Under the pieces are notes generated by a model. The model was not told the DNA's origin and did not search any database. It saw nothing but the letters and a program-made list of their open reading frames with translations. From NCBI GenBank assembly GCA_000004985.1, contig GG738883.1: 64,000 nucleotides of DNA; one strand, written 5' to 3'. The stretch's first letter is position 1, and each line of letters begins with the position of its first letter. Of this stretch, positions 25,956 through 59,281 are shown one piece after another. The translations under genes were made by a program, and so were the position numbers. This DNA is from Naegleria gruberi. Lineage: Eukaryota.

Positions 25956-27371
25956 TTATTTATTGTTGCTTAGTAGATGCATTACTTCAGACAGAACTCT
26001 TCTTGTTTTTTCATTCGCCATAAAAGCCTCATTATAATCTGATTCAATTTGATTTAGTTCCATTTCTAGAGAAGCAATTAATTTCTTCTGATCTTCTATC
26101 CTTACAACAAGATCCTGCTTAGTCTTTCGTTCGGTTTCAATCTTTTTCTTAATGTCTGAAATTGAGCTTGGGGGAGAACTCGAGGGAGAAGGCTCCTTCA
26201 CTTTGTCAAATGAAAATTTGTAAAAATCCACATCTGGCCTTCTGAAAAATATCGTGTATTTGATTTCTGATTCCTCATTGAAATCCAACCAATCAACCAG
26301 ATATTTTTTGATATTGTTTCCAATTAGAATGAGTATCGATGCTCCATGCAGAGTGGAGTTTGTTTTTTGGGAGTGGGGATCAAAAATTACATGCACTATT
26401 TCTCCATATTCTTGGTCTAGAATTGAGTATATTAGCTTAGTAAATGTGTTCTGTTGGAGTAATAATATACAACTCCTTCGTTTCGTTTCCAAAACTCGAT
26501 CAACCTTGGAAGAAAGACTTGTGAGCTCTCTAAGAGTAATTGCAGCTGCGGCTTGAAGATCCAATAATTTGTTTAACCTATCGTTCATTCGCAACATGTG
26601 CTCTGCATCAAGAATTCCCTGTTGGGGATCTTGAAAAGCTCCAAGTTGTAGAACGTTGTCAATCAAAGAGTTGGTAATTTTTGATGGTTCTAGCACTCTG
26701 TAAAGCAATTGTGCACCCATTTCAAGGCAAGTCGGCAGTGATGATGTACTCACCCCAAATGTTTGATAATCATTTTCACTAGCGATTAATAAACACTTCT
26801 CGATGTACTTATAATTTTTCCTATACATGGTTTCGAATTCAAATTTCTTGATTGACCTAAGTGGTGATTCCCTCTCTGTTGTTGATTGTCTCGAATATTG
26901 TTTATCATTAATTTGATTCCTATCAATTGAATAATCATATGATCCGTAAGGGCTTCCACTTTTACTATAATTTCTTGATGGATCTGAAGGAGAGAAGGAT
27001 CTGGTTGGCGTTGAAAATCGAACTGAGGGTTCTCTTGGAGGAGATTTAATAAGTTCATTGCTAAGTGACCTACGCTTTGCATCCGAAGAAGATGGTTTTT
27101 GAGGAGGAGAAGCAATAGGTGAATTAAAATTTCTGAAAGGACCATCCGAAGGAAATATTGTTGAGTCTCCATATGATCTTCTGTGGGATTGTTTTGATGT
27201 TGTAGTTATCGATGAAGATACTGGAGTATATTTTGAATAAGTTAATGAGTTTGAATTTCCATAGACATGTTGTTGCTGTTGCTGATCAAAGTGATGGTCA
27301 TACTTTGGTCGTTGAGACATTTTATTCACTTTATTTTTTTGTAGAAAGTTTGGCGGGAAATCATTCTTCAT
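25956..27371 (-). CDS. hypothetical protein (471 aa) with an S/P-rich phospho-type N-terminal region, a conserved-looking central domain and a C-terminal coiled coil
   Basis: ORF with ATG in an A-rich context. No family is recognised. Confidence 0.5.
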   Translation of the reverse strand: MKNDFPPNFLQKNKVNKMSQRPKYDHHFDQQQQQHVYGNSNSLTYSKYTPVSSSITTTSKQSHRRSYGDSTIFPSDGPFRNFNSPIASPPQKPSSSDAKRRSLSNELIKSPPREPSVRFSTPTRSFSPSDPSRNYSKSGSPYGSYDYSIDRNQINDKQYSRQSTTERESPLRSIKKFEFETMYRKNYKYIEKCLLIASENDYQTFGVSTSSLPTCLEMGAQLLYRVLEPSKITNSLIDNVLQLGAFQDPQQGILDAEHMLRMNDRLNKLLDLQAAAAITLRELTSLSSKVDRVLETKRRSCILLLQQNTFTKLIYSILDQEYGEIVHVIFDPHSQKTNSTLHGASILILIGNNIKKYLVDWLDFNEESEIKYTIFFRRPDVDFYKFSFDKVKEPSPSSSPPSSISDIKKKIETERKTKQDLVVRIEDQKKLIASLEMELNQIESDYNEAFMANEKTRRVLSEVMHLLSNNK

Positions 27372-36100: not shown

Positions 36101-37113
36101 CAATTAATCGAAAATCAATCAAAAGAATTGAAAGATTATCACAATCAATTGAATGAATTTGAATTGAAAATGAAAAAAAATCATGAAAATTTGAAAACTG
36201 AAATTTTAAATCTAGAAAAGGAAAAGAAACAATTTTCAAATTCAAAGCAAAGGAAAACGAAGAAATTTCAAAGAAATTACAAAATTTGAAACAAAAAGAA
36301 ATTGAAATTGAGAAAATGGAAAAGGAAATTAAAGAATCAAAATCCAAACAATTAACAATATCACTTCCAGGTTATTGGAAAAGAAACACATTCCCAAGCT
36401 ATTCGAAAAGATATTACACTGTTGATGTTACACAATATTTAAAAGATACAATGCAAGAAATTATGAATGCATCCTGTAATTCTGCAACACTTGGATCTGG
36501 AAGAGATCAAGTATCAAGAATTATGTATTCTAAATTGATTGTTTCCAGTGTTTCAAGAATTGAAAATTCAACACTTTTCACTTCATTCAAATCAAGAATG
36601 AATCAGTTAATTTCATATCAAGATTCAATTAATTCACTCCAAGTTCAGACTGAAAATATTTCAAAAACATCAAAAACATTTGAATGGATGAAAACAATTG
36701 GATTGAATTCTAATATGAATGAAAAATATTTATGGCATGGAACAAAACCTGAATTTGTGAATACAATTGCAGAACATGGATTCGATGAAAGAGTTGCAAA
36801 TTTAAATGGATTATTTGGAGCAGGTATTTATTTTGCAGAATATTGTTCAAAGAGTGATCAATATTGTACGCCTGATCATTCCAATGAATTTACTCTATTA
36901 TTATGTAGAGTTGTAATGGGAAGACAAATTCATTTCACAAAACAAGTGATGAATAATCAGAGAAGACCACCTGAAATTTCAGGAAGTAATAATAGAGTTT
37001 ATGATAGTGTTATTGGTCAATCAAATACTTCAACTAATTCATATAGAGAATTCATTGTCTATGATAAATGTCAATGTTATCCTGAATTTATAATTAAATA
37101 CAAGAGACAATAA
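33120..37113 (+). CDS. gene B: ankyrin repeats + long coiled coil + Ser/Thr protein kinase domain + coiled coil + PARP catalytic domain. Exons are 33120..33314, 33491..33577 and 33848..36289, with introns 33315..33490 and 33578..33847. There is a single-base frame break near 36254-36257, after which the ORF continues to 37113.
   Basis: AAAAAAATG start. Exon-1 ANK: MLWVACFNGHLEIVKLLLSCKTIDVNLG|GTAAGT. Exon 2: SPLYTACQNGHLEIVKLLLSCKTIDVNLT. Exon 3: SPLYIACRYGYLEIIKQLL..., in frame with ORF 33935..36289. Kinase motifs: HCDIKPENIF, GDFDIS, GTLDYLSPE. PARP motifs: LWHGTKPEFV, GAGIYFAEY, YREFIVYD (an H-Y-E triad). Restoring one A in the A-run at 36254-36257 joins the kinase ORF to the PARP ORF through a continuous coiled coil (...SNSKQKENEEISKKLQNLKQKEIEIEKMEKE...). 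Confidence 0.7.
33315..33490 (+). repeat. intron 1 of gene B: a tandem array of about 4 mini-intron-like units of ~45 bp each (GTAAGTATTTAATATT...TTTATAATATTAG)
   Basis: Direct reading shows repeated GTAAGT...ATATTAG units separated by 3-4 nt. Confidence 0.8.
33578..33847 (+). repeat. intron 2 of gene B: a tandem array of about 6 mini-intron-like units of ~45 bp each. The flanking exons 2 and 3 are diverged duplicates of the exon-1 ankyrin cassette.
   Basis: As above. In addition, 33262..33314 and 33521..33577 are nearly identical at the nucleotide level. Confidence 0.8.
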
Positions 37114-41252: not shown

Positions 41253-43713
41253 ATGCTCCCTCAGACAAATAGTGATGATGATTCGCTGATTGATGATGAT
41301 CAACTTGCATCAATTTACGAAGCAATCTATCCATCAAATCAAATTAATGTAGTTGACAATAATAATAATCAAAGTGTATTAATTGATGATATAATGATTG
41401 TTGATCCTTCTTCGGAATCAACATTTAGGATCTATTTGAATGAATTTATATTTACAGAATATGAATATGTTGAAGTTACTCGTAATTATGAAAACCAAAA
41501 GGAATACAGAAAAACAAATGTCAATGCATGTGGTTGGTTGAAGAAGAATACTAAGAATTCTACTCCATACTTGGATAATAAGACGTATCAAATACCATTA
41601 GATCCTAATGGTGACTACTTTATTGAGAAACTGTTGCTAGTACAGATTAGCCCTGGTAAGATTCCAAAGAGATACTCTCTTGAGAGAACTATTCCTGAAT
41701 TTAGAGTCGATGCAAGTGGTAATCGTTATATTGGAGCAAAATTGAGGAAAATCAAAGCATTTAATGCTAATCAAGAAACTGTGAACAGAATTTTGAGGAT
41801 TTCCAAACATATACAGGATAAATTGATCCAAGAATGGCCTGAGAATTTGAGAGAAGATGTATTTTTATTACCATTGGTTTCCTCCTCAACTGGATCATCA
41901 GATATTTCACTGTTCAATGGTATTCCTTACTTGGATGTTTTGGAACAATTCTTCTCTAACAATAGTTTACTTATCCAAGATGCTGAGTTTGAGAAAAGGT
42001 TGAAAAACCCAAAAGGTTTATTAGTCAGATGTGAGCAAACATTTGAATACTCAATTTTAGGTAAGTATTTTACGCACAATTTTACCAATAGTTTCACCAG
42101 TTGGTCATTATCAAGGAAAATTGCTTGGCAGAAAACTCACCAAAGAATTGGTAAAGTGCTTCATTAGTAACCCACACTTAATAAGTGCCAAGAATGCTGA
42201 CATTGAAATTGATCCAAGTTATGTTTCATTCCCCAGATATGGACTTGAACTTGTTGAACAATTAAGAGAGCAATTTTACATGGAGTTAGATGTATTAATC
42301 CAGATGAATCACTATCAAAAAATGTTAGATTTTTATATTATCAAATTTCCTGGTTACCGTTTTCTTAAGGATCCATTATTGATTAGGGTAGCCCATACCT
42401 TCCCTTCCTATGCACACAAAATGAATTTTGGTCGTGGTCACTATGAGAGATTAGAGTTTATGGGAGATTCTGTGGTTAATCTTACTGCTTGTGTAGAACT
42501 GATCAAATCTTGCAGAAACGATGATTCAAAGAAGGGAGATTGGAATGCTGGATTCACTGTATTGATTGCCAACGATTCAATTACCAGAGAAGCAGAAAAG
42601 TTACAAATTTCTGAACATTTCCTCAATAGTTCTGATAAGTTTTCAAAAAAGGCACAGTCCAATGTTATTGAGTCTATCATTGGAGCATTGTACATGGCTG
42701 AAGGAATAAGAGGTGCTCGATCTTTTGCAAAGGAATTACTTATACCAACTAGCATTGACTTTAAATGTCTAAAGAAATTTTCTAGCTCCTTCCCAAGCGT
42801 TTCAAATGAGGGAGAGCAATGGAAAAGAGATGTTGAGCATATGAAGTTATTTATTGGACAAGATATTATAGAAAAATTGCAAGACATTTTGCATTATAGA
42901 TTTAGGGATGTTGGATTGATACAAGAGGCTCTAATTAGCTGCAGTTACAATAACACATTTATGGATCTAAGAAATGTACCCATGACTGAAAAGATTCAAA
43001 AATTTTTGAAAAAGAGAAATGATAGCAAAATAGTTGGCCTTTATCATTTGTACAATAATGAACAACTCAAATTATTGGGATCAGCACTACTCAAGTTTAT
43101 GGTCACTGAATTTGTTTACAAGAGATTTACAGAAGCACAGCCAAGCAAATTAACTTTGCTGGCTCACCAAATAATCTCAAAGCAAGGCAAAGTATTCTCA
43201 GCTATCCATGAAAAGTTTAGATTTGATCAATTCTTAATGAAGACTGATATCGACGCTGATTATTCAGAAATTCAGCAATCCTATGACTGTTTTACTGCCC
43301 TTTTGGGAGCTATTTTCATGGATCAAGATTGTTTATTTTATAAGTTTGAATTTGCAACAATTTCTAACACCTATACAGAAGAGCTTGCCAATTCTACTGA
43401 TCCTTGCTCATCTTATTTCCTCAAAAGACATGATGTTACTCCTGACAAGTTCTTCTATTCATTCTTGTTCCCTTATATCGAACAGTTTGAGTTGAGCCCT
43501 TATACCATTGAGCCTCCAAAGAAGCACACACTTCAACATTTGATCCAAGTCAACCACAAAAGCGTTCCATCTTATGTAAAGAATCAGGACGTATCCCAAG
43601 AGTTTTGTGTTACTATTATGGTAAATGGACAAGAGTTCAGTAAGGGTGTTTCTTCTAAATCTTTTGCAGAAGCAGAAGAACAAGCAATAGAAATGGGCTT
43701 GAAAATGTTTTAG
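41253..43713 (+). CDS. Dicer/Drosha-like class-3 RNase III (about 806 aa): two RNase III domains plus a C-terminal dsRBD, with no helicase or PAZ. Exons are 41253..42060 and 42101..43713, separated by a 40-nt intron.
   Basis: The RNase III signature is HYERLEFMGDSVV. The second domain is LLGSALLKFMVTEFVY...DCFTALLGAIFMDQD. The dsRBD is KKHTLQHLIQVNHKSVPSYV...EAEEQAIEMGLKMF. Removing GTAAGTATTTTACGCACAATTTTACCAATAGTTTCACCAG at 42061..42100 joins the two ORF-track ORFs in frame. Confidence 0.75.
42061..42100 (+). other. 40-nt spliceosomal intron (GTAAGT...CACCAG)
   Basis: This is the only canonical GT..AG choice that joins the 41253 ORF (phase 1) to the 42121 ORF frame. Confidence 0.65.
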
Positions 43714-45543: not shown

Positions 45544-46314
45544 TTAAAGCAAAATCTCATTATCACCGATTGTTAGCAACAATTCTTTAGCTTTAGGATG
45601 ACTGTAATCTATAGCAAGAGAACAAAAGAATCTAGCTCTATCAAATTGATCATTTGATTTGTTTAAACAACAGGCTGCATTATAGCAACAAGTGCCTAGA
45701 AATACGCTGTCTTCTGAGTGAACAAATTTTCCCATTAAGTAACAGAAAATGAAGGCCTCAGCTGCCAATTCATAGTTTTTGTTTCTAAACAAACCAATTG
45801 CAACATCCTGTTGAGCCATAATTCTTGTTCTTAATTGATCTCCTTGTTCAGAATTGGAAAATTCAGAAAGCCATTGGTTGTTTGGGGAACAGAGAAGACA
45901 AAGTACTTTCCCTGGTTCCAGTTCATATATGATAGAGTTTGAGGCAAGCTGGAAAGGTCTGAAGGAATTGACTCTAATAAGATTCATAAAATCAAGTAAC
46001 AGAAACCTGCCAATAACTATATCATCTTCTTCAAAATGGTTAGCCGCCACAATATTTGAAGAAGCTCCACTAATATCTAATGAAGGAATGTTAACACTGC
46101 ACAATCCCATTTTCTCAACATTTGATCCTTCATGGAAACTCATGAATAATCCAACTTCGCCGAACATTTTGGAGAATGTGGCTGGAGATACAGCAATACC
46201 AGAGTCACAACCAGTGTCCAACACAACATTTCGAAACTCAAATTGTTTGCCATTCGCAATTATAATAATCTTATTAATCGTATCTTTTCTGTCTTCGCTT
46301 GATGAAGACATCAT
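45544..46314 (-). CDS. retropepsin-like aspartyl protease domain protein (about 256 aa from MMSSSSEDRK) with a helical C-terminal region
   Basis: IIIIANGKQFEFRNVVLDTGCDSGIAVSP carries a D-T/S-G active-site motif in a retroviral-protease-like context. No flanking retroelement ORFs or LTRs are seen. Confidence 0.55.
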   Translation of the reverse strand: MMSSSSEDRKDTINKIIIIANGKQFEFRNVVLDTGCDSGIAVSPATFSKMFGEVGLFMSFHEGSNVEKMGLCSVNIPSLDISGASSNIVAANHFEEDDIVIGRFLLLDFMNLIRVNSFRPFQLASNSIIYELEPGKVLCLLCSPNNQWLSEFSNSEQGDQLRTRIMAQQDVAIGLFRNKNYELAAEAFIFCYLMGKFVHSEDSVFLGTCCYNAACCLNKSNDQFDRARFFCSLAIDYSHPKAKELLLTIGDNEILL

Positions 46315-46525
46315 TCTAACTTTCGGAATACAATCTGGTGTAACTGAGGTTTTGATTGTCACAGGCTTTATGGTTTTCTTTGGACCCAAAAGATTTTCAA
46401 CCTTAACACGAATCACCATTTTTTTTAACTTTTAATTTTACCTCTGTAGATGATATTCGAATGGTTTATAGTGATGTAACTAGAAGTATGGAAACAATGA
46501 AATAAAAATCAATGGGATATTGTCT

Positions 46526-49093
46526 TTACCAATAGTCACCACAAGTACATTTTCCATCCTTAAAATGGTGGAACCGTGAGGCATCACGAATTATTATTTC
46601 ACAATTTCTAACTGCTGACAACAATTTAGTGGCATTATGGCAATCTCCACAAACCCTCAAGTTCGTTGTTAAATGAATTGTTGATGTATTTGGCTGTTTG
46701 TTGAAAGCATATGCCATGGCTATCTTTTCAGAATGTTTGTATAGTAAATCCAGTTTTTCTGCATCAGTGTCAACATTTTTAATCACCCAGCTTAGGTCTG
46801 GTTGATAACCTGCCTTAATGAGATCAGCTACCATTTTTTTTAGTTCTTTCTCTATCATCTTTATCTCTGGATGCTCCTTTTCTTCACAAACAAAAGAATG
46901 CATTTTCCCTTCGATACAAACTTGCGTCATACTTGGTAACTTTTTAAATCCACCAAATTCCATCAACTCTTTAACCCTTTTGGCGTCTTCGTACATGTCT
47001 TGAGAAGCATAAATGTTAGCCATTAAAATGAAGTGAGATGATTCCACTTCATTTCGTTCAATAAGCATATTGAAAAGTTTCTCTGCTAAGGTGACATTGT
47101 TGAATTTTCTACAGACCCCAAATAAAGTGGACACAGTAACAACGTCAGGACTGATACAAGACCCTAGCAATTTCTCAGCCTCTTTAATATTACCTTTTCT
47201 TGCCAATGCATCGATCAAACATGCCAAATGTATGTTTGATGGTTTGATTGAATATTTGGACTCCATGTGGTTGTATATTTCTTTTGCTTCGTCCACCATA
47301 CCACAATGGCCACATGCATGCAACACACATGTTAGAGTATGCTCATTTGGTTTAATATTTTCTTTGCTCATTTGGTTCAAAAGTTCAATAGCCTTCAATC
47401 CCATTCCATGTATTGCATAAGCATTTATGATACAGGTCCACGAAACAACATCTTTGTTTGGTACTGAGAGGAAAACTTCATGTGCACTTGTTAAATCTCC
47501 ACATTTTGCATACATATTAATGAGTGCATTAAACAAGTTGTGGTCTCTGATTCTTAGCTCACTAATATTTCTGTGAATTATTTTTCCAAAATCCAAATTT
47601 CCAAATTCAGAGCATACAGAAAGAAGCAAAATAAGGGTTGGTACATCTGGAACCAAGTTGTTATTGATCATATCTTCGTACAGGGAGATAGCTTCTGGCA
47701 TTTTCTTAAGATTGGCCCATAACTTTATCATACATCCATAATGTGCTGTAATTCTTGCTATCTTGAATAAGGTGTTCATATTATCGAACAAGAAACATGC
47801 TTCTTGTTCCATAGAATGATTTGCAAAAAATGTTAACATAACCGTCATGGTTACATCATTCGGTTGGGTATACTTTGGCATGATCTTGAAATAAAGTAAT
47901 AATCTTTTTGTATCTCCATTTTGGGAGCATCCCTTAAGAAATGAGTTCCATGTTATTACATCTTTGAATTCCATTTGGTTGAATATTGATTCTGCATGTT
48001 CTACTTTACCACTCTTCAAAAACGAATCCAAAAGAACATTGAAAACAAAAACAGAGGTAACGCCTTCACTAATAATAATACTTTCTATTTCTTCCAACCT
48101 ACCCTCTTCACAATACGTTGGTATGATTAGTGTCCAAGTTGTATCGTCCAGTTGTTTCGTTTTAAGCATCTTCATAAACAGTTCTATTGCTGTTTGAGTT
48201 TCCCCACATTTCGAAAACATGTTAATGAGATTATTCTGAACAGTAATACTCCTGTATAGTTCATAATTTTTCATAATTGTTTCGTGCAATTTTTTCCCAT
48301 TAACTAGAGATCGAGTAATAGCACATCCTTTCAACAAAAGAATAAATGTTACTTCGTTTGGAATGAGTTCTTTCTCTTGTCTGTAAATATTCATAGCTTC
48401 CTCACTTTCTCCATTCTCAATCAATGCCTTTATCAGACAATTAAAGTGAATAATATCTGGAGAAACGCCATATTCTTTCATTGAAAAATAAATTTCTTTG
48501 GCCTTTTCGCTCATGTTTGAATTGGCAAGAGAATTCAATAGTGAAGAAAATGTTTTGGGTTCTATTGGAATCTGTTTGCTTTTGACATATTTTAACAATT
48601 CAAATATGGTGGAAATATGTCCTGTATTGCAAAATCCTCTAATAATATAATTCCATGTTGGTGGATTTACTTTCTTCTTATATTCTTCTTGTAATGAAAG
48701 CATAATTGTTGAGAGATCATCCCATAATGAGGTACTTCTGTCACTGCTTTCGATTTTGCAATAACTTATTAATGAAATAATAACAAAATAATTTAAAAGT
48801 GATTTCTCCTTCAATAAATAATAGGCTTTAAAAGAATCATCCAACGACAACAATCTTTTTGATATGAGTAAGTTGGCATCAAAGGAATTTGGTTTCTGGA
48901 AAAAATGTTTCGTTGCTGAATCAACTTTTCCTTCGGCTATTAAATTTCGAACCACTCGATAATCAAAAACAGGAGAGTACGTATGGAAACTATGAAATTT
49001 ATTTGTATCACTAAACTTCAGAGTTTCCATATAAGATTTCTTGCACTTAAGGTTCTTGAAAAGAAAATTTTCAGCACAAACCAGCACACGCAT
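46526..49093 (-). CDS. pentatricopeptide-repeat protein with a C-terminal DYW cytidine-deaminase domain (855 aa); a putative organellar C-to-U RNA-editing factor
   Basis: AAAAAAATG start. There are more than 15 PPR-like 35-aa repeats. The C-terminus reads HSEKIAMAYAF...LRVCGDCHNATKLLSAVRNCEIIIRDASRFHHFKDGKCTCGDYW*, carrying the HxE and CxDCH zinc motifs and the terminal DYW. Confidence 0.85.
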   Translation of the reverse strand: MRVLVCAENFLFKNLKCKKSYMETLKFSDTNKFHSFHTYSPVFDYRVVRNLIAEGKVDSATKHFFQKPNSFDANLLISKRLLSLDDSFKAYYLLKEKSLLNYFVIISLISYCKIESSDRSTSLWDDLSTIMLSLQEEYKKKVNPPTWNYIIRGFCNTGHISTIFELLKYVKSKQIPIEPKTFSSLLNSLANSNMSEKAKEIYFSMKEYGVSPDIIHFNCLIKALIENGESEEAMNIYRQEKELIPNEVTFILLLKGCAITRSLVNGKKLHETIMKNYELYRSITVQNNLINMFSKCGETQTAIELFMKMLKTKQLDDTTWTLIIPTYCEEGRLEEIESIIISEGVTSVFVFNVLLDSFLKSGKVEHAESIFNQMEFKDVITWNSFLKGCSQNGDTKRLLLYFKIMPKYTQPNDVTMTVMLTFFANHSMEQEACFLFDNMNTLFKIARITAHYGCMIKLWANLKKMPEAISLYEDMINNNLVPDVPTLILLLSVCSEFGNLDFGKIIHRNISELRIRDHNLFNALINMYAKCGDLTSAHEVFLSVPNKDVVSWTCIINAYAIHGMGLKAIELLNQMSKENIKPNEHTLTCVLHACGHCGMVDEAKEIYNHMESKYSIKPSNIHLACLIDALARKGNIKEAEKLLGSCISPDVVTVSTLFGVCRKFNNVTLAEKLFNMLIERNEVESSHFILMANIYASQDMYEDAKRVKELMEFGGFKKLPSMTQVCIEGKMHSFVCEEKEHPEIKMIEKELKKMVADLIKAGYQPDLSWVIKNVDTDAEKLDLLYKHSEKIAMAYAFNKQPNTSTIHLTTNLRVCGDCHNATKLLSAVRNCEIIIRDASRFHHFKDGKCTCGDYW

Positions 49094-49354
49094 TTTTTTA
49101 ACAATACTCTTAAGAATAAATATACTTCATCAAAAGCTGCACCATGTGGTTTTTATATTCAATCATCAATTAATTCGGAATGTATCTTAGCTCCTTCAAG
49201 ATCAAATATCATTATAACTAATAGTTAAGGCTGGTCAATCGAGTCAATTTCTTTATGTGCCTTTTCTCTCAATAGTGTTAACAGAAATATCAAGATTGGT
49301 CAATTTACTAACGGGTTTTAATTATTAAGGCTTTTAATAAATAGAACAAAAAAA

Positions 49355-52300
49355 ATGACACACAGAAAAACTCTTTACGTTAAAGTTCCCACGATCGATG
49401 CTACAAAAGATGAAGAAACTCCTAATCATCAACAAGACCCAGAGCTAAAAACACCCACAGGTCTTCTCGGAAGAGGGAGAAGTAGAGGTCGAGGAAGAGG
49501 AAAAGGTACACACCTTGTTTTTAACCAAAAAAATAAGGCTCAAACTCTACAAAAAAGAACATCTCATAACCAAGTTACAAGCAAAATTCAATATGAGGTA
49601 GAGATTGTTACAAAGATACAAACATCAACGGAGGCTACATCACAACAACCATCCACAATCACACAAAAAGAAATCATCACTTCTTGTATATCTCAAACTT
49701 CAACAACAGAAAGCGAAATCATTGTTCCTAATAGAAAAATTGTTAATCTCAAGGAAGTTCAAACCCTGACAAGGGAAGAGGTTTGCTCAATGATACACCC
49801 ATATTTACCTCGTGACATAATTCAGCAACAATTTGAGTTGGGATTGGATGGTACAGTAGTTTTTAATTACTTAAGAAACAAGGGTACTGACATACCACCC
49901 CAGTACACTAATTTTGTTTGGTTAGGCGTAACTGTTTTAACTGAAAAAAGACTTTTTCCATTTTGGAACGAAGAATTCACGATCCGTAAACTTCGGGAAA
50001 AGAAGATCATTAAGGATGTCAATACTAAATTTAATGTCAATGATTATATTTCGAGAATTGCTGATGGTATTTATAACAATGAATCTTTACCCCTCATCAG
50101 AGAAGAATCTGTGTTTTTATCTTCAATAACTGATAACAAATGGGAGTTATTGGTCAAATTTGTGACAGATTTAATGACTATCGAAATTATTCCTTTTCAT
50201 TATTCTTACAAAATTTCTGAATTACTATTGGAATTACCAAAATCCTTTAATCAGTCGAAGCAGAGATGGTGTTTAAAGATCCAGGAAGCAGTACGAGATC
50301 AAAAGGGTAAATTAGGAAGTTTATTCAAACAAGCAATACTTCCAGATCATTACAAAGGATTTTATGCCATTAAAAGAGATCCTATGTTGCGTGAATGGAC
50401 TTACCACTTTAACGAATTGAAAATTCCAGAAAACAAAGGAAAGCCTTTGATTGACCTATTATCAAAAGATATTTCAGTTGGGAGAGGCAACGATTTTGGA
50501 TATGGTATTATCCCAATTATTGATTTGTCAACCTCTGGAAAGACTTATACAATGTTTCAACTGGTCAACTCAATTCCTACAATTAATTACAAATTCTTTT
50601 TTGTTATACACATTTATCAGTCATCTCTATTTTGTGAGGCACTAATAGAAAATATTAAGTCGAACAAACGCCCAATATCTGAACTCGTAGCCTCATTTGT
50701 GTTAACTATATTAATAACAATTAAAACTTTGGTTGAAACAGAACCTGATATCCACCCGCGTGATTTTTTGAAGTAGGTATTTAATTTTATTGTTTTTTAT
50801 CAAATGATTGAAATCAACAGATTTATTAGAGATGAAGGTGATGTATGTTTAACAGAAATATTTAAAAAATTAGTTTCTACCTATTTTGAAAAGAAGATTA
50901 GTGTTTTGAATGAAGATCTTACAAATGAATTAAAAGAAAAAATGATTAAGGTGGTATTTTCATTTGATGAAGCTCAAACATTGCTTGAGTATAAAACCGA
51001 TTCATGTTGTTTGATTAATGAACTGTGCAAAGAAATTAGACGTTACAATAATCCAGTATTTCTTGGAACAACCTTTAGTATTTCAAAGGCTGTGTTAAAT
51101 GTTAGTCAAGAAGGAAGGCAATTTTTGTTTCCTGTAATTGGTACTCTTGAGCCTTGGTATTTGAATGATGTTGACAAGATATTAAGTCACATGTTCAATA
51201 TTGAAGATTTTAAGAAAGATAATGAAGAAGAGTATTGGATATTATGCTATTTACTATCTGGCGCACCTGAGAATGTAGTTAGATTCCACCAAACATTATA
51301 TCAACACGCAGAACTCTATCATAACGATAGTCTGGCTCTTTTTAGGAAAAGTCTTGAAGAAGTTGTACAGTTCAAAGAAGAGAGAAGTGCAGTTAGAATT
51401 GTATCTTTTTTGAATGATACATCAATCATGGACAGAGAAGATCATTTGTTAAAACTTATTTTTGACAGAGAAGTCGAAAATCAAAAGTTGATGAATTCAG
51501 ATTTGGTCATGAATAGTTTCAAGAGGGCATTCATTGAAAAAACCATTGCTTTTGTTGTTAGGAAAGACACAAATTCTTTATTTGAGATTGTAGATCCAAT
51601 TATTGCAAAATCATATTTTACAATTTTAGTGGAAGATTACACAGAAATGATGGTTTCTTTCATGACAGCCAACTTCACTAAGAGGGGAGAAGACTTTGAG
51701 CTATTTATGGTTATATTACTAATACTTGAAAGTAATAGATTGAAAGATCAACCTATGGTTGTTAGTCCATTATTTGCAAGTGCAACCAGTTTGTGCAAGT
51801 ATCAACTGATTACTAGAACCTTTCTAAATGATAAACATTTAAGCAAAAAGCTTTTATCACAATTTGCCAACATTTCAAGCATTTGGTATTGCCAATTGGC
51901 ATGCCATTTCTTTATGGATACATATGTGAAATCAGATAATAATATGGGGCCACTTGTGCTATGACACTTATATCTGACGGAATTACCGATAAAGAACAGC
52001 CCCATAAAGCCATCAATCTATTCAGAACTCTTTCCTTTGGAACAAAAACTGGACGAGGCAATAATTTCAAAGTTCCAACTTCACTTGTCAATCTACCATG
52101 CGTAAGATGGATTGTAGCACCAAATATGAAGAAAAACTTGTTTTCTGAGAGGAACCTTAGGAATGAGTATTCGTATTTGAATTCTGAAACACCAATTGAC
52201 GATGCATTTGCATGTCTTCAAAATAATTCTCTTGAATTGGTTATCACTGGATCAGGGGATATTAGTAAGTGCATTGAATGTTATCGTTCAAAACCGTACT

Positions 52301-52893: not shown

Positions 52894-55800
52894 ATGAATT
52901 CCTACCACCAACAATTTATGAAAAAGTTGAAGGAATCTAACGACCAATTAGAAAATACCACAAAGAAATTGTTGGAACAACAAAAGAGTCAGCTGAATGA
53001 TCTCTTCAAGATGAGAGATCTTTTGCTCAATGTTCATAAATCCAAAGTAAATAAGACCACCAATGATTCACTGGAAAAGATGGAAAAAATCATCAATACA
53101 GAAGAAGAAAATCCTAAACCAATTGTAGTTGCCTTCCTTGGTAATGCAGGTGTTGGTAAAAGTAGTTTCATCAATGATATGATTGGTGGTCAACTATTAC
53201 CAAGTTCTTCTGGAAGAATACATGTAACAAAGGCCCTATGTCACTTGAGCTATTCAAACAACATTACAATGGAACCAGTTTTATGTTCAGAAGATGAAGT
53301 GAAGGAAAGATGTGCTGAAACTCACTATGACTATGGTTCTATCAAGCCAGTTAGCATTGTTTCCAAGGTTACAGAGTACAAAACTATCCAAGATTTGACC
53401 ACAGCCATGGTCACATTTCAAAATCAAATGACAGAGAGTGATGTTTACAGAATCAAATTGATTCGAGTTAAAGTACCTCTTCCTAAAATCAAGTCCAAGT
53501 TTGAAGTTATTGATGTACCTGGTATTAATAGTGGTACATTGAGTGGAATATTCGAAAGAATGGCTTTGGAAGCTTGTATACTTTCTGATAGAATTTTATT
53601 ATTCCCAAATAGTTTCAGATCAGAGATTCCAACAGATGTTTTCGAATTCGTCCGTAAAATATTCAGTGACCCAATCATTCAAAAGAATCCAAAAACATTT
53701 AGTTTTTGCCATGGTGGTAGAAGTTTCCAAGAAGCAGATGCTCATAAGGAATATCTTGATTGTCTCCATGATTATAACATATCCAAGATTCATGTTTCAT
53801 TTTGTCAATTACTTTCTAATTACTTTGATTTTAAATTCGATGATATTCCAAAAGCTCCCAATGAGAAACCAGTTAATGATCAAATTGTGTTTGTCGAGAA
53901 TAAGAAAGTAGTATTGGAATTACTAAAGGATAATTTTGTTTCCTTTCCAATTCCACACAACAAGTCAAAAAGCTTGACACATGAAATCAATATCACTCAA
54001 CTCTATTTTGATATCATGCTCAAGAAGGATAGACTTATTCTAGTTGGTAGAATGATTCAATCACTACGGGAGCTAGCCCTGTTGTGCATCCCAAATTTGC
54101 TATTCAAATCCAAGTTTCAAACTGCCAAGAGTAATCAAGATAACAATGTAGAAATTATGGATGGATGTAATGAGGTTGTACATGATATTGTGAGAAAGAT
54201 GCAAAAGGTTTTGAAAAAGCGTGGTGGTTTTAAGAAATCGAATGTCAAATTCCCTACTAATTTCCTTCTTGACGTCCTGTCATCTGAAGTTGTTAAGAAT
54301 TTCAAGGAGAAAGAACATACTCTAATCCAAAACCAATTAGCTCTCATGGAAAAGCACATCAAACTCTTGGGTTCTATCCATTTAATCAAGAGTCAATCTG
54401 GAGATGCTGAGCAAGATTTAAAGAACTTTTCCGAACAAGTTCTTCCACTATTCGATTTAAATCACAAAGATCACATTACATTGGCAACTGAAATGAAAGG
54501 TGTTTTGAATGATTTATTTAAGAGTTTCATTTTGGAACGTAACTTTGAGTATGAACACAAGTTTGATATCAATTTTTGTGATGTCAGAAGAGATGAACAC
54601 AATTCAGGTGTTTTAAAACTTCCAAATAGAATGTTTTCAAGTGTTGAAGACATGACAAGTGCCAAGATAGTTTCAAATGGTGACAGTTTAACAAAGGCAA
54701 ACAAGTATAGAAATGATAAATCTGAAATGCAAGTCAGAAAATTGGAGAGTTCTGTACTTCTTCCAGCTTCTTCACAAAATATAATGGAAATTAATATTAG
54801 AAAGGACAAAATTATTGAGATTGAAGGTGGTGATCAATCATTTGATTCATTTAAGAGCATGTTGCCTTCAAGTACTTTACTCAATCATCATGCAAAAACT
54901 AGAATTGCTCCAACATTCTTCCTTTCCTTAGATGGAACATGTCCAAACCTTGCATTTAATTCATGTTGGGTAAATTACACCTCCGAATCACTTGTCATTA
55001 TTGTTACTCCACATGAATATGTCGATAACTTTGTTGATTTGGTTCAACAACACAATGAGAATGATCAACATAGAGTGATGATATTAAGTGTTTCAGTTGA
55101 GAATGAATTATATTCTGAAGGATCCTTGATGAATGCTGTCTTTGATTTTTCATCATACTTTGATTTTCCAATCATTCATCTTGTCAAACTGAATGTCAAA
55201 AACATTTATGAATATGTCAGTCCATTGAAAGAATACGTTCACAATGAATGGACACCAATTAGATATTTCAGAAGTTCAGAAGCAATTGTTTACAATGAAA
55301 TTAATAGTCTTAGTGATGATAAGAAGCAAGAAATTGCCAAAAAGTTTGTAACCTCAGCAAATGACATTATTTATAAGAATAGTTTGAGATCAGATGAGAG
55401 GATTAATGATTTATCATCTCATTACAATGCGAAGGAAGCACTTGCTGATGTTGAAGGATTTGTTGATTATCTGAGATTAATTGATTCCAAAGTTAATGGA
55501 AATTTGGAAAAGAATTTCAAGCAAAGTTTCTTTTCAAAGAATAAGGCAAGAGTTGGATGTTGGGATGGATTGACTAGAAATATTGATAGAAATAAGATTT
55601 ATTCTAGAAATGGATATAATTACATGATTTCTAATTATGCGACTGCCATTGAAACTTATTTCATGCAAGCTCTAGACAAGATTAGACCAGTTTCTGATAT
55701 TAAATTCACCCAAGATTTGCCAAAAGAGGGATATCAAACCATAGAGAATGGTTTTGACAGCAAAATGATTAGTTTCAGAACTAATATGCTAGCAAATGGT

Positions 55801-55935
55801 GTTGGTGGATTTATTCATTTCGGTTTCAAGTACGATTTGAATCGTTACGAGAAGATGAAACAAAAACAACAAACACCAAAAAGAAAGAAATCAACAAAGA
55901 AGAACAATTTCACATCCAGAAAGAAGAGAAAATAA
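52894..55935 (+). CDS. large P-loop GTPase (1013 aa) of the IRG/dynamin-like class, with a K-rich C-terminal tail
   Basis: VVAFLGNAGVGKSSFINDMIG is a G1 motif; a downstream T and VIDVPGINSG give the G2 and G3 motifs. Confidence 0.6.
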   Translation: MNSYHQQFMKKLKESNDQLENTTKKLLEQQKSQLNDLFKMRDLLLNVHKSKVNKTTNDSLEKMEKIINTEEENPKPIVVAFLGNAGVGKSSFINDMIGGQLLPSSSGRIHVTKALCHLSYSNNITMEPVLCSEDEVKERCAETHYDYGSIKPVSIVSKVTEYKTIQDLTTAMVTFQNQMTESDVYRIKLIRVKVPLPKIKSKFEVIDVPGINSGTLSGIFERMALEACILSDRILLFPNSFRSEIPTDVFEFVRKIFSDPIIQKNPKTFSFCHGGRSFQEADAHKEYLDCLHDYNISKIHVSFCQLLSNYFDFKFDDIPKAPNEKPVNDQIVFVENKKVVLELLKDNFVSFPIPHNKSKSLTHEINITQLYFDIMLKKDRLILVGRMIQSLRELALLCIPNLLFKSKFQTAKSNQDNNVEIMDGCNEVVHDIVRKMQKVLKKRGGFKKSNVKFPTNFLLDVLSSEVVKNFKEKEHTLIQNQLALMEKHIKLLGSIHLIKSQSGDAEQDLKNFSEQVLPLFDLNHKDHITLATEMKGVLNDLFKSFILERNFEYEHKFDINFCDVRRDEHNSGVLKLPNRMFSSVEDMTSAKIVSNGDSLTKANKYRNDKSEMQVRKLESSVLLPASSQNIMEINIRKDKIIEIEGGDQSFDSFKSMLPSSTLLNHHAKTRIAPTFFLSLDGTCPNLAFNSCWVNYTSESLVIIVTPHEYVDNFVDLVQQHNENDQHRVMILSVSVENELYSEGSLMNAVFDFSSYFDFPIIHLVKLNVKNIYEYVSPLKEYVHNEWTPIRYFRSSEAIVYNEINSLSDDKKQEIAKKFVTSANDIIYKNSLRSDERINDLSSHYNAKEALADVEGFVDYLRLIDSKVNGNLEKNFKQSFFSKNKARVGCWDGLTRNIDRNKIYSRNGYNYMISNYATAIETYFMQALDKIRPVSDIKFTQDLPKEGYQTIENGFDSKMISFRTNMLANGVGGFIHFGFKYDLNRYEKMKQKQQTPKRKKSTKKNNFTSRKKRK

Positions 55936-56128
55936 GTGTTGACAACCTGAAGCTGATGATTTCGATATTCTCTTTTTTAACTTGTAAATAAAACAACATG
56001 ACAATTAATTGATTCAAAGCTTTTCATTGATGTGATGAAAATAGAAAATGAGTAGAAAAGAACACAAAATAAATAAAAATATTTTATATTATTAACATTT
56101 ATTACAATGTGTTCTTTGAGTAAATTTC

Positions 56129-59100
56129 TTATAATTTAACTCTCTGAAATCTTCTTTCTGTATCCATCATTACATTTTCAATAACAGTTACCATACTATC
56201 AAATAAATTAAGTGGTATATAATCATGAGTAATTTGTTCAGTTTCGTCTGAGAATATTAATTTAGACATGGCATGAATTTGACTTTGTGTAATATTGAGT
56301 GGTGAAGTTGATGATTCAGATATGAATGTGTTGAATATTTCCTTTGCTATTCTCCTTCTCTCTCTCACTCTATATTCTGTCTTGTATGTAAATTCAACCT
56401 TTTCCCAGAATAGTATATTTTGAGAAGATTGTTCAGTTGAGCAGTAATGTTTAAATTGAGTTCGTAAATCATCTCTTTCAAGTGTTCGTTTTAAAGATGA
56501 TTGAGAAAGATATCTAATCTCTCTCAATTTCAAATCATATTGTAATAAAAGATGATGTTGATATGGTATCAGAGTAACATCTGTACTTCCATTCAGAATC
56601 ATTAAATCTCTTAATAAAGCTATAGCACATTCCAATCTTAATTGTCTATTCTTAATGAGATAGGCAATTATAATAGTATAACTAGCTTCAAATATTTTAA
56701 TTTCATCAAAATCAATACTAGATGTTGAACTAGAATGATTACTGTGAGTAGAAACTGCTTTCATAGAATCATCTGAAATCTTTTCAGATAAAGATGGTGG
56801 ACTAGATGGTGCAAGGAAGAGATTGATTTTCTGTTGAACTAACATGGTCAAATCCTTATCAGATTGAGATGGATTATATTCTGAAATGAGACAATGCTCT
56901 TTAGAATCTTCAATCCATTTCACACATTCGTCTAATTTTTCAAAATTTAATCTATTACTAGCTGGAAGATAAACAACAAGATATTCAATACTTGTGTTAT
57001 AAATCTTGTACGTTTTGAAAATGTACTCGGAAAATCTGTGTGGATCAATACCATCACATAATTTGAATCTTTCATCGGATTCACTAATAATTTGAATAAT
57101 ATGTGTCACTTGCTTGTTTTTCATTTCTTTTGTAATGCTCTTATGTAAGTGTAATAAATTTGAATCACAAAATAGTACAGATTCAAATAGACATGTTGTA
57201 AAACTTGGATTTTCCCAATCAACCTTTTCACATACAGTATATAAATGATTAAATAATGAATAGGTATTAATATTTGTCAATTTAGGTGATATCTTTTTCC
57301 AATCTTGACTAATTTGTTGTTGATCCTTCAATGAAATAAAGTTATATGAACATTCTAGAGTTTTCAATTCATTTAACTTTTTAGTAGAAGAAGCACTATC
57401 AATTTGAATGTTTAAACTTGTTAAACAATTTCTATTCAACTTCAATTCATGTAAATATCTAAAATCTAACCATCTATTTCCTGCAACATGTTCAAAATCA
57501 TGAGTGGTAATACCACAACCACTCAAATTTAAAGTTTCAATATTTTTCAATTGGAATAAACCATCAAATACTTGATTATTCCAATGAATGTCATTATAAC
57601 TTAAATCTAAAACGTATAAAGTTTCAGAGAATAATTCAATACCTTTCAAACATTTAATTCTATTGAAAGATAAATTAATAGTTTCAATACGTTTCAAGAG
57701 AGATAATTCTTGAATACTATTTGCATCTAAAAACATTTTCTCAAAGACCAATTCATTATGGCATAGACATAGATTTTTCAAATATCTCATTCCAGAGAAT
57801 AATTTAGAAGGTAACTTTTTCAAACAATTATAACTCAAATCTAAATGTTTCAATTGAACCATTCCAGTAAGTGTATTATCTTGAATGGATTCTAAATAAT
57901 TGTGAGACAAGTCCAAATAGGTAATAGTAGAATACAATTTTTCAAGCATGCTATTGCTGTTAATAAATCTTAGATTGTTATGACTTAGTTTTAGTGTTTC
58001 AATATTGGATGTAATGTAATCGGTTGGAATTTGTGGTAATTCTTTCAGTCTATTATGAGAAATATCTAAAAAATCAACACTTGATAAACTCATTATCGAT
58101 TGAATAGAACCCTTAATAAAACAATTCTTCATTTCCAACCTTCTCAAGAATGAAAGACCTCTAATAGTTGAAGGTAAATCATCTTCTTGAGTTTCTAATC
58201 CAAATGGTCCATTATTATTCATTCTCAATAATTTAAGTTTTGGAAATCTTCTTAACCATTCTATTGGAAAGTTAACTAAACCACAACTACTAATATCAAT
58301 TTCTGTAATGCTATGATGAAAATGTTCAGAAACAAGGAAACTAGAAACTGTTTGTTTTCGTTGTAATAACAATTCCTTTTCAATATTAATCATATCATCA
58401 TCAGTCTTTCTAATAACTCTTGACATTCTTGGAGAAACTTTTGAAATTGAACCATTAGTTGATGATGATGATGATTGATTTGATGCATTATTATTTGGTG
58501 ATGAAATTGAATTATTTGCTTCATTATTTGGATCAATAATTGTAAATATTTGTGATAAATTCAATGTCGACCTATTACTAATATTAATTAATTGATGAGT
58601 TGATGTTAAATTTGGAGCAGATTTTGAAAGAGTGTCATTATTTGAATGATGGAATTGACCTGAAATGATTACACTTGTACTCGTCGTATTGAGTGACATG
58701 TTTAAAGAAAAATCCGATTCATGACTAAATAAACTAGGATTTGCACTCAAATCTAAAGTTTCCAATAAACGTAAATCATCTAAACACTGTGGATAACCTC
58801 CATAAAGTCTATTATTACTTAAATTCAAGTAAATTAAAGAATTTGCAAGTGGTTTGTGTTGTTTGCTTGATATTTTCTCATTATGAAACTCTGCTGTTAA
58901 ATTACGTGAAGATTCAGATGATTTCTTTTTTAAACCACCCTTCTTGAAAGAAATACCTAAAAAGTTCTCAATTTGATTGAATGAATAATCTAAATGTGTT
59001 AATTGTTTCATCTTTCTCAAAGGTTCACTAAATTGTGTAAATAAATTGTGAGATAAATTTAGAATTTTTAAACTTTTCATCTTGTTAATTTTCTCTGGAA

Positions 59101-59281
59101 CTTGATCCAAACTATTTTGTGATAAATTGAGAGAAAGTAAATGATTTCTCAAACTATCATCATCACAAATTATTTTAAATTGTTTCTTTGATATGTTACA
59201 ATTAATGAGTGAGAGATTTTTCAAGTAATTATTCAATTTTGAATGATGATTCCATTTACCAAATTGTGAATTTGATGCCAT
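56129..59281 (-). CDS. leucine-rich-repeat protein with a C-terminal RGS (regulator of G-protein signalling) domain (1050 aa)
   Basis: There are multiple LxxLxLxxN LRRs in two blocks. The RGS core reads FKHYCSTEQSSQNILFWEKVEFTYK...IHAMSKLIF...IPLNLFDSM. Confidence 0.7.
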   Translation of the reverse strand: MASNSQFGKWNHHSKLNNYLKNLSLINCNISKKQFKIICDDDSLRNHLLSLNLSQNSLDQVPEKINKMKSLKILNLSHNLFTQFSEPLRKMKQLTHLDYSFNQIENFLGISFKKGGLKKKSSESSRNLTAEFHNEKISSKQHKPLANSLIYLNLSNNRLYGGYPQCLDDLRLLETLDLSANPSLFSHESDFSLNMSLNTTSTSVIISGQFHHSNNDTLSKSAPNLTSTHQLINISNRSTLNLSQIFTIIDPNNEANNSISSPNNNASNQSSSSSTNGSISKVSPRMSRVIRKTDDDMINIEKELLLQRKQTVSSFLVSEHFHHSITEIDISSCGLVNFPIEWLRRFPKLKLLRMNNNGPFGLETQEDDLPSTIRGLSFLRRLEMKNCFIKGSIQSIMSLSSVDFLDISHNRLKELPQIPTDYITSNIETLKLSHNNLRFINSNSMLEKLYSTITYLDLSHNYLESIQDNTLTGMVQLKHLDLSYNCLKKLPSKLFSGMRYLKNLCLCHNELVFEKMFLDANSIQELSLLKRIETINLSFNRIKCLKGIELFSETLYVLDLSYNDIHWNNQVFDGLFQLKNIETLNLSGCGITTHDFEHVAGNRWLDFRYLHELKLNRNCLTSLNIQIDSASSTKKLNELKTLECSYNFISLKDQQQISQDWKKISPKLTNINTYSLFNHLYTVCEKVDWENPSFTTCLFESVLFCDSNLLHLHKSITKEMKNKQVTHIIQIISESDERFKLCDGIDPHRFSEYIFKTYKIYNTSIEYLVVYLPASNRLNFEKLDECVKWIEDSKEHCLISEYNPSQSDKDLTMLVQQKINLFLAPSSPPSLSEKISDDSMKAVSTHSNHSSSTSSIDFDEIKIFEASYTIIIAYLIKNRQLRLECAIALLRDLMILNGSTDVTLIPYQHHLLLQYDLKLREIRYLSQSSLKRTLERDDLRTQFKHYCSTEQSSQNILFWEKVEFTYKTEYRVRERRRIAKEIFNTFISESSTSPLNITQSQIHAMSKLIFSDETEQITHDYIPLNLFDSMVTVIENVMMDTERRFQRVKL

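Follow-up and report, generated by a model that had tools for sequence, protein, structure and literature searches.

A single uninterrupted open reading frame occupies positions 46526..49093 on the minus strand of the window, the 64-kb stretch of DNA (64,000 nucleotides) analysed here. It opens with an ATG, encodes 855 amino acids followed by a stop codon, ends in KDGKCTCGDYW, and constitutes a complete single-exon CDS for a PPR-E1-E2-DYW protein, corresponding to NAEGRDRAFT_70351 with an extended N-terminus. Over residues 194–855 (662 aa) its product matches XP_002674667.1 (NAEGRDRAFT_70351; UniProt D2VN29) with 100% identity, and the sequences of five nearby ORFs agree exactly with N. gruberi NEG-M proteins from the same 371,401-bp scaffold. 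These identities place the gene in Naegleria gruberi NEG-M (Discoba, Heterolobosea), and not in the amoebozoan-like genome that the original prediction had envisaged. Within the 64-kb window it is the sole PPR or DYW gene. N. gruberi-specific genes flank it at 107 bp and 261 bp; judged from the ORF coordinates and the identity of the neighbour, the 261-bp intergenic region (49094..49354) between it and the divergently oriented XP_002674592.1 presumably holds the promoter and 5′ UTR. Base composition (GC 0.336, GC3 0.314) and codon usage (r=0.89 against the window) are typical of the 19 other window ORFs. The window sequence as a whole is AT-rich, intron-poor and amoeba-like. Since a family of about ten such genes in N. 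gruberi has been in print since 2010, the feature at 46526..49093 is already known: it is an intact plant-type PPR-DYW gene and a member of that published family.

The database model XP_002674667.1 (662 aa against the 855-aa ORF) probably lacks 193 N-terminal residues. It starts at Met194 (MSEKAKEIY), inside PPR motif 2, leaving out the 193 codons at 48515..49093 (minus strand). A length of approximately 855 aa is favoured by the ORF itself, by the alignment of this region with the paralogue XP_002673292.1, and by a second allele (L001; 97.9% identical, 854 aa) on an ENA metagenome contig with the same flanks, in which the region is open and begins at the same Met1. An in-frame TGA TGA lies 12 codons upstream of Met1, and 134 of 135 nucleotides preceding Met1 are identical in the metagenome allele.

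Residues 1–43 (48965..49093, minus strand) are predicted to form a disordered extension, being the only part of the AlphaFold2 model with pLDDT <50, and are a candidate mitochondrial presequence. By crude metrics this N-terminus is weakly presequence-like, with a net charge of +3 over the first 25 aa, modest amphipathicity and an acidic residue at position 8. The paralogue alignment begins past this extension, at aa 48 of the ORF. Residues 44–143 (48665..48964, minus strand) are modelled as three degenerate helical hairpins (helices 46–53/57–66, 70–78/84–92 and 99–111/119–133) that precede the PPR motifs proper. BLASTP aligns them to aa 25–120 of the paralogue, which marks the two N-termini as homologous, and their dN/dS against the metagenome allele is 0.08, a figure with few changes behind it.

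PPR tract, E motifs and predicted RNA code

Four Pfam PPR families match the ORF, namely PPR_2 (3.1e-68, in nine stretches), PPR (5.7e-60), PPR_1 (4.1e-38) and PPR_3 (1.9e-24). Consensus scoring, AlphaFold2 helices and Pfam together delimit an RNA-recognition tract at aa 144–650 (47144..48664, minus strand), an array of 15 PPR motifs of 31–36 aa whose best consensus matches are P, L1, S1, P2, L2 and S2, as in a PLS-class array. Three P-type motifs come first, followed by irregular L/S/P motifs and finally by a canonical S1-P2-L2-S2 series. The motif bounds obtained from consensus scoring agree with the starts of helix pairs in the AlphaFold2 model (mean pLDDT 86), where helix a begins at residues 144, 179, 214, 247, 283, 317, 348, 379, 413, 449, 484, 518, 549, 584 and 620. 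Two further PPR-like helical hairpins, E1 and E2, follow at aa 651–718 (46940..47143, minus strand), with helices 651–661/667–679 and 685–697/701–713; Pfam E_motif (PF20431) matches aa 664–725 (E=5.7e-14), and consensus scoring sets E1 at 651–684 and E2 at 685–718.

The best structural match to the model, found with Foldseek, is 9kfx, the crystal structure of a synthetic PPR-DYW protein in complex with its target RNA (E=2.3e-33; TM 0.77 normalised to target), and the whole-protein sequence match to 9kfx (E=6.7e-144) is far beyond chance. The expectation of a protein of the plant organellar editing-factor type is borne out: Pfam, consensus scoring and the AlphaFold2 model together give the architecture PLS-class PPR-E1-E2-DYW. 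Reading the PPR code from the 5th and last residues of each motif, a step that the original prediction had suggested, yields an upstream RNA element of approximately 5'-n G Y n U (A) U Y n n n U A n n-3', spanning positions -18 to -4 with S2 at -4; because motifs 4–11 are irregular, the predicted code is weak there.

The DYW deaminase domain

The C-terminal 137 residues (aa 719–855; 46529..46939, minus strand) form a DYW cytidine deaminase domain with a diverged PG box, a gating-domain insertion and a terminal DYW, as supported by PF14432 and by alignments to solved structures. DYW_deaminase (PF14432) matches aa 762–855 over profile positions 1–93 of 93 (E=1.9e-39; 133.8 bits against a cut-off of 24). 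This full-length match, together with the PPR families above, bears out in the HMM scan proposed at the outset the description of an 855-aa ORF of PPR repeats ending in a DYW deaminase domain. The zinc site and the C-terminal DYW that had been pointed out had not been misread, with HSE at 787–789, CGDCH at 815–819 and DYW at 853–855.

Residues of the domain align column for column with the solved domains of OTP86 (7o4e), DYW1 (7w86) and the synthetic 9kfx, and in this alignment adding 105 to an ORF residue number gives the OTP86 residue. By equivalence to OTP86 H892, S893 and E894, codons H787-S788-E789 (46727..46735, minus strand) are predicted to supply a Zn1 ligand and the catalytic Glu; similarly, C815 and C818 of C815-G-D-C818-H819 (46637..46651, minus strand) would be the Zn1 ligands corresponding to OTP86 C920 and C923 (roles from PMC7611903). 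PF14432 and the OTP86 alignment both recover the HxE(x)nCxxC zinc/catalytic signature of PLS-class PPR-DYW factors. Residues H787, S788, C815, C818, H819, H842, C849, C851 and W855 are invariant in all aligned sequences (32/32), and the residue at the catalytic position E789 is E in 29 of 30 plant homologues and D in the other. The second (structural) zinc site and the terminal motif are also present at the sequence level, in the form of H819, H842, the CxC at 849–851 and the DYW. The gating domain, defined as OTP86 H837–G891 (PMC7611903), has its counterpart in aa 732–786, which align to OTP86 837–891 with just two one-residue indels. A Foldseek superposition of the model on the active-state OTP86 DYW domain (7o4f) gives a TM of 0.79 normalised to target.

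Two features depart from the plant pattern. The DYW-specific regulatory lysine of OTP86, K915, is replaced by T810 (46664..46666, minus strand, by alignment to OTP86); the same position is N in the paralogue and K in 29 of 30 plant homologues. When the plant domain is autoinhibited, K915 forms a pair with the catalytic Glu, and it has a role in activation, none in catalysis (PMC7611903), so that T810 is a regulatory difference and no ground for excluding membership of the class. The PG box reads PSMTQVCIEGKMHSF and is diverged from the consensus PGxSWIExxGxxHxF: the P, the spacing, the G at consensus position 10 and the H-x-F are kept, while G2, W5 and E7 are replaced, with the alignment uncertain at W. 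At the position matching E7, 21 of the 30 plant homologues carry a Glu.

Family membership, selection and proposed function

The DYW-type PPR family of N. gruberi was described by Knoop and Rudinger (2010, FEBS Lett 584:4287) and Rudinger et al. (2011, RNA 17:2058), as these are presented in the papers citing them. It is reported to comprise 10–11 genes against two verified mitochondrial C-to-U sites (PMC4202320), for which the DYW-PPRs are the proposed factors (PMC4202320; PMC5421314). The original prediction of a single DYW gene does not hold given this count and the paralogue XP_002673292.1 (P0004, 860 aa), which is encoded on another N. gruberi scaffold and aligns with 32% identity over aa 48–855 (E=1e-127), most strongly in the C-terminal E2-DYW region. 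The protein described here is nuclear-encoded and, through this alignment from aa 48 to the C-terminus, homologous over its full length to a family member.

The best matches outside Naegleria are all land-plant PPR-DYW proteins with 28–33% identity. A homologue search with the N-terminal 344 aa returned six plant PPRs only, also missing the identical database protein; the word filter of the search is the probable cause, and the result carries no information. A search with the E2-DYW region alone yielded nothing beyond short DYW fragments from plants or metagenomes, with no Naegleria paralogue among them. Among the best 150 matches to a two-sequence Naegleria profile, an exhaustive HMMER search gave no orthologue from another species, although weaker paralogues may rank lower; these 150 are mostly long PPR proteins matched in multiple stretches, and full-length matches in one or two stretches were confined to the two N. 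gruberi proteins. A metagenome scan by peptide patterns found no relatives, and no mention of the gene's accession or locus tag was found in the papers searched or in the supplement of Fu et al.

The gene is under purifying selection. The metagenome allele differs at 54 nucleotides, giving 20 amino-acid changes and one in-frame 3-bp deletion with the whole 854-codon frame kept, and dN/dS comes to 0.15 for the whole frame, falling to 0.09 within the DYW domain. The 5th and last code positions of the PPR motifs are untouched by the 20 amino-acid changes.

Gene identity, domain architecture, intact catalytic residues, a fold matching those of solved DYW proteins and purifying selection are thus observed, and on these grounds it is likely that NAEGRDRAFT_70351, as a member of the nuclear DYW-type PPR family of N. 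gruberi, is an organelle-targeted, site-specific C-to-U editing factor; we infer a mitochondrial location, an editing activity and a target site. After synthesis in the cytosol, the protein would enter the mitochondrion by means of its disordered N-terminal extension. There, the superhelix of approximately 15 PPR motifs, together with E1 and E2, would bind one single-stranded RNA stretch at one nucleotide per motif, the 5th and last residue of each motif presumably reading the base, as in the family at large. Binding would position the DYW domain over a cytidine that lies some 4 nt downstream of the nucleotide contacted by S2. As a zinc-dependent cytidine deaminase, it would convert this C to U with Zn1 held by H787, C815 and C818 and E789 shuttling the proton; conserved His residues and C849-x-C851, next to the terminal DYW, may hold a second zinc with a structural role. 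Such an activity has a precedent in moss, whose DYW-type PPR proteins PPR56 and PPR65 by themselves carry out C-to-U editing in E. coli (PMC6397227); functional characterisation of a Naegleria PPR-DYW protein has not been reported (PMC3753752; 2026 preprint 10.64898/2026.09.04.749523).

An editing role has the weakly presequence-like N-terminus, the diverged PG box, the Thr in place of K915 and the irregularity of motifs 4–11 against it. In addition, with 10–11 family members for two sites, most members, possibly including NAEGRDRAFT_70351, are without a known target. More tentatively, the protein may serve neither of the published sites, cox1eU1120HY and cox3eU787RW, and act instead on an undiscovered target, such as a C-to-U site that is edited at a low level, lies in non-coding RNA or depends on conditions, or in another RNA-processing step. 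As K915 is replaced by Thr here and by Asn in the paralogue, Naegleria DYW domains may, as part of the same conjecture, be constitutively unlocked deaminases that work without plant-type gating or helper proteins.

The excess of genes over verified sites also lends itself to a reading in which this genuine PPR-DYW protein is not an editing enzyme in vivo and instead takes part in endonucleolytic cleavage, splicing, transcript stabilisation or translation in the organelle, or has a cytosolic role, its DYW domain being used to bind or to cut RNA. The same alternatives were put forward by Fu et al. (2014, PMC4202320), ribonuclease activity in vitro has been linked to a DYW protein (PMC10318007), and the diverged PG box and lost regulatory Lys point the same way. 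However, all residues needed for deamination are present, few parts of the protein are as strongly constrained as the DYW domain, an intact HxE...CxxC site would be needless for a pure RNA binder, and low-level or non-coding editing sites may have escaped detection so far. We regard a non-editing role as unlikely.

Far less probable is that the gene is a decaying, non-functional relic of an old horizontal transfer, in the form of an expressed or silent pseudogene-like paralogue. The surplus of family copies could be read in this way, as could the truncated database model, if it reflects doubts about the annotation, and the fact that a close orthologue was not found beyond N. gruberi-like sequences. 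Against this stand an unbroken frame of 855 codons with every catalytic residue intact and, above all, the second allele, which for all its 54 nucleotide differences has only an in-frame 3-bp deletion and a dN/dS of 0.15; this largely refutes the relic.

The exclusively land-plant character of the best non-Naegleria matches might suggest plant DNA contamination or an assembly chimera, to which we give practically no credence: identity to plant proteins is only ∼30%, composition and codon usage cannot be told from those of the other window ORFs, N. gruberi-specific genes adjoin it closely on a 371-kb scaffold, and the gene recurs with these flanks on a metagenome contig of independent origin. 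Both composition and synteny led us to dismiss contamination or a recent transfer. Equally negligible is the reading in which one DYW gene of an amoebozoan or dictyostelid-type host accounts for the few dictyostelid mitochondrial C-to-U sites, a reading in keeping with the AT-rich, intron-poor, amoeba-like sequence but refuted by the N. gruberi host and its at least one further paralogue (10–11 genes reported in PMC4202320), which render the proposed link to dictyostelid editing moot.

Plant-type DYW editing factors were first encountered beyond the land plants in Naegleria, whose DYW genes are central to the debate on whether organellar C-to-U editing is of ancient origin or was spread by horizontal transfer. 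The patchy, HGT-like distribution outside land plants that had been noted for DYW-type PPR proteins is discussed in these terms by Fu et al. (2014, PMC4202320). As the point on Naegleria was made in 2010–2011, NAEGRDRAFT_70351 teaches nothing new about the family as a whole. The present analysis contributes a corrected gene model of full length, a table of the code for each motif, the missing regulatory lysine and the purifying selection evident from a second allele.

Comparison with known editing systems

Within the N. gruberi DYW family, the gene at 46526..49093 is one member (100% to XP_002674667.1), differing from the public entry in that the latter is a 662-aa model. The S1-P2-L2-S2-E1-E2-DYW C-terminal architecture is common to the Naegleria protein and land-plant PLS-class PPR-E1-E2-DYW factors (Arabidopsis OTP86, Physcomitrium PPR56 and PPR65, and the synthetic 9kfx), as are the HxE, CxDCH, HxF, CxC and DYW residues and the fold; alignment to 9kfx residues 278–612 proceeds without large gaps. 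In contrast, overall identity to the land-plant factors is only ∼30%, the N-terminal half consists of three P-type 35-aa motifs and irregular motifs where plants have regular P1-L1-S1 triplets, the PG box has PS..Q in place of PG.SW, OTP86 K915 is a Thr, and the host is without a plastid.

Among other Discoba, the heterolobosean Acrasis kona has 12 DYW-type genes and 2 verified mitochondrial C-to-U sites, likewise a small lineage-specific E/DYW expansion (Fu et al. 2014, PMC4202320). However, its edited genes, atp6 and cob, differ from those of N. gruberi, and the Acrasis genes group with Physarum whereas the Naegleria genes group with rotifers, which suggests independent acquisitions (PMC4202320). 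Diplonema papillatum PPRD1 (10.64898/2026.09.04.749523) is similarly a mitochondrial PPR-DYW protein of Discoba linked to deamination editing. It is, however, single-copy, with an atypical PPR array, the partner DAPX1 and >100 C-to-U and A-to-I sites, whereas in Naegleria the gene is one copy of several in its family and encodes a plant-like PLS-E1-E2 tract.

The PPR-DYW gene, its host and its family

The reverse strand of the window carries, at 46526–49093, an ORF that starts with ATG, runs uninterrupted through 855 codons plus stop and ends in ...KDGKCTCGDYW; a pair of in-frame TGA codons 12 codons before Met1 prevents any further 5′ extension. The HMM scan recovered both the expected PPR and DYW_deaminase matches: all four Pfam PPR families matched strongly, the E motif was placed at aa 664–725 (5.7e-14), and DYW_deaminase aligned over its full profile (positions 1–93 of 93; aa 762–855, 1.9e-39). 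The synthetic PPR-DYW protein 9kfx is the top sequence match among solved structures (E=6.7e-144), and the isolated DYW domains of the Arabidopsis editing factor OTP86 (7o4e) and of DYW1 (7w86) likewise match. HSE (787–789), CGDCH (815–819) and the terminal DYW (853–855), the residues that the original prediction had named, are all there; its observation of an intact PPR-DYW ORF is confirmed, and its interpretation is supported in part. No other PPR or DYW gene was found in the 64-kb window.

Residues 194–855 (the C-terminal 662) are 100% identical to "predicted protein [Naegleria gruberi]" (XP_002674667.1, synonymous with EFC41923.1, NAEGRDRAFT_70351 and UniProt D2VN29) on a 371,401-bp contig, and five further ORFs of the window are exact N. 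gruberi NEG-M proteins from the same contig (XP_002674585, -86, -87, -92 and -94). N. gruberi belongs to the Heterolobosea within Discoba, which contradicts the amoebozoan host originally suggested. The composition of the gene is typical of the window (GC 0.336, GC3 0.314, and codon usage that correlates at r=0.89 with that of the remaining ORFs), and contamination or recent transfer as its origin is therefore excluded.

Published work already describes lineage-specific heterolobosean expansions, a scattered occurrence among eukaryotes and a possible origin by horizontal transfer from early land plants (PMC4202320), so that the gene is an already-known family member which the original prediction correctly re-discovered, and the patchy, transfer-like spread outside plants that it described was already in the literature. 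Its assumption of a single-copy DYW gene does not hold, given 10–11 DYW genes in N. gruberi (PMC4202320) and the paralogue XP_002673292.1. The original papers on Naegleria DYW proteins, Knoop & Rudinger 2010 and Rudinger et al. 2011, are cited in PMC4202320, PMC5421314, PMC3753752, PMC3239186 and a 2026 preprint on Diplonema papillatum PPRD1 (bioRxiv 10.64898/2026.09.04.749523). Orthologues in other species were absent among the matches listed when the N-terminus or the DYW domain alone served as query, when HMMER was run exhaustively and when metagenomes were scanned, an absence whose meaning is limited by the design of these searches.

Architecture and length of the protein

Repeats were delimited by scoring the sequence against P, L, S, E1 and E2 consensus motifs, and their starts agree residue for residue with those of an AlphaFold2 model built on a 32-sequence alignment (mean pLDDT 86, pTM 0.68). 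A disordered N-terminus (aa 1–43, pLDDT below 50) and three degenerate helical hairpins (aa 44–143 in the model) precede 15 PPR motifs (starts 144, 179, 214, 247, 283, 317, 348, 379, 413, 449, 484, 518, 549, 584 and 620), E1 (aa 651–684), E2 (aa 685–718) and, directly after E2, a DYW domain of 137 residues. The array opens with three P-type motifs and is irregular in its middle, and the protein closes with a canonical S1-P2-L2-S2-E1-E2-DYW unit.

The public model XP_002674667.1 (662 aa) starts at Met194, within PPR motif 2. The 860-aa paralogue XP_002673292.1 aligns with the ORF from residue 48 through the C-terminus (E=1e-127), which indicates that the stretch 5′ of Met194 is homologous coding sequence; ordered helical repeats begin already at residue 46 in the structure model, and an 854-aa metagenomic allele (P0351, from a 2,770-bp contig of ERZ929261), which shares a 90%-identity cluster with the public protein, has the same Met1. 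The open frame, the alignment with the paralogue, the modelled structure and this independent allele together point to a full length of about 855 aa, so that 193 N-terminal residues (48515–49093, reverse strand) are probably absent from the annotation. Of two candidate starts, Met22 gives an N-terminal extension near the paralogue's in length and Met1 a more basic one.

Selection on the gene, and other features of the window

The metagenomic allele occupies positions 136–2700 of contig k127_35433 of the environmental ENA metagenome ERZ929261 and is 97.9% identical to the window allele, with flanks matching at 134/135 and 69/70 nt. Among 2,565 aligned coding positions, 54 distinguish the two alleles, and the metagenomic one carries an in-frame 3-bp deletion that removes one codon of PPR motif 6. 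By the Nei-Gojobori method, this pair yields dS 0.068, dN 0.010 and dN/dS 0.15 for the whole gene, 0.09 for the DYW domain, 0.19 for the PPR tract and 0.30 for aa 1–193, the last from five synonymous and six non-synonymous changes. The 20 amino-acid differences all spare the fifth and last positions of the motifs. The gene thus evolves under purifying selection rather than persisting as a relic. Five of the amino-acid changes cluster within ten residues (535–544), in the second helix of motif S1.

Elsewhere in the window there are a 5S rRNA gene (8933–9051, forward; Rfam, 100 bits) and tRNA genes for Pro-TGG (5653–5724, forward), Met-CAT (5830–5901, reverse) and Asp-GTC (17366–17436, forward), the first two forming a divergent pair ∼100 bp apart. 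Two RNase III domains (PF14622 and PF00636) lie in a forward ORF at 42121–43713, which overlaps the 3′ end of a preceding 304-aa ORF in a different frame; an intron or frameshift may divide a single Dicer-like or RNase III gene into these two ORFs, which span 41253–43713. A protein-kinase ORF (33935–36289, forward), probably with a long low-complexity N-terminal region, occupies the most AT-rich stretch (GC 0.21 at 34–36 kb). Five long ORFs (25956–27371, 27485–29437, 45544–46419 and 56129–59281, reverse; 50804–51964, forward) have no exact match in the protein collection, where their neighbours do occur as exact sequences; introns or alternative starts probably set their public models apart. 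Neither of the ORFs directly beside the PPR-DYW gene (45544–46419 and 49355–50776) has a Pfam domain. At 52894–59281, a 1,013-aa dynamin-family GTPase (XP_002674594.1) stands tail to tail with a 1,050-aa LRR and RGS protein, a pair without apparent link to the PPR-DYW gene.

Proposed function and comparison with plant enzymes

In the PPR code, the fifth and last residues of a motif specify A (T/S+N), G (T/S+D), U (N+D) or a pyrimidine (N+N or N+S), and the S2 motif is aligned with nucleotide −4 relative to the editing site; these rules were reportedly worked out by Barkan in 2012 and by Yagi and Takenaka in 2013. Their application to the informative motifs predicts G at −17, Y at −16, U at −14, possibly A at −13, U at −12, Y at −11, U at −7 and A at −6. 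The 2026 preprint gives the same spacing of four nucleotides. It is most likely that the PPR-DYW protein would be imported into the mitochondrion, bind one transcript sequence-specifically and carry out zinc-dependent deamination of a cytidine four nucleotides downstream. Two mitochondrial C-to-U sites in N. gruberi were verified by Rudinger et al. 2011, as cited in PMC4202320. The main alternative, a non-editing role, has been raised in the literature on account of 10–11 DYW genes set against only these two sites (PMC4202320); however, the catalytic site of the protein is intact and strongly constrained, and we favor the editing role. According to PMC3753752 and the 2026 preprint, no Naegleria DYW-type member has been functionally characterized.

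The top PDB match of the model in Foldseek is the 9kfx crystal structure with target RNA (E=2.3e-33, target-normalized TM 0.77), of which residues 278–612 align nearly gap-free with the Naegleria S1-to-DYW block, and the DYW part also matches the active-state OTP86 DYW domain (7o4f, TM 0.79). From the alignment with OTP86, whose residue roles are those of Takenaka et al. 2021 (PMC7611903), ORF residue numbers plus 105 give OTP86 numbers. The equivalents of the Zn1 ligands H892, C920 and C923 are H787, C815 and C818; E789 takes the place of the catalytic E894, and S788 that of S893. All 32 aligned sequences share H819, H842, C849, C851 and W855. The PG box (aa 720–734; 46895–46939, reverse) is unusually diverged, reading PSMTQVCIEGKMHSF against PGxSWIExxGxxHxF, whereas the paralogue retains PG and has Tyr for the conserved His. 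In the autoinhibited plant enzyme, the DYW-specific K915 of OTP86 forms an ion pair with the catalytic Glu and takes part in activation, not catalysis (PMC7611903). At this site (46664–46666, reverse), where 29 of the 30 plant homologues carry Lys, the PPR-DYW protein has Thr810 and XP_002673292.1 has Asn, and these two substitutions suggest that Naegleria DYW domains may operate without the 'gated zinc shutter' lock of plants.
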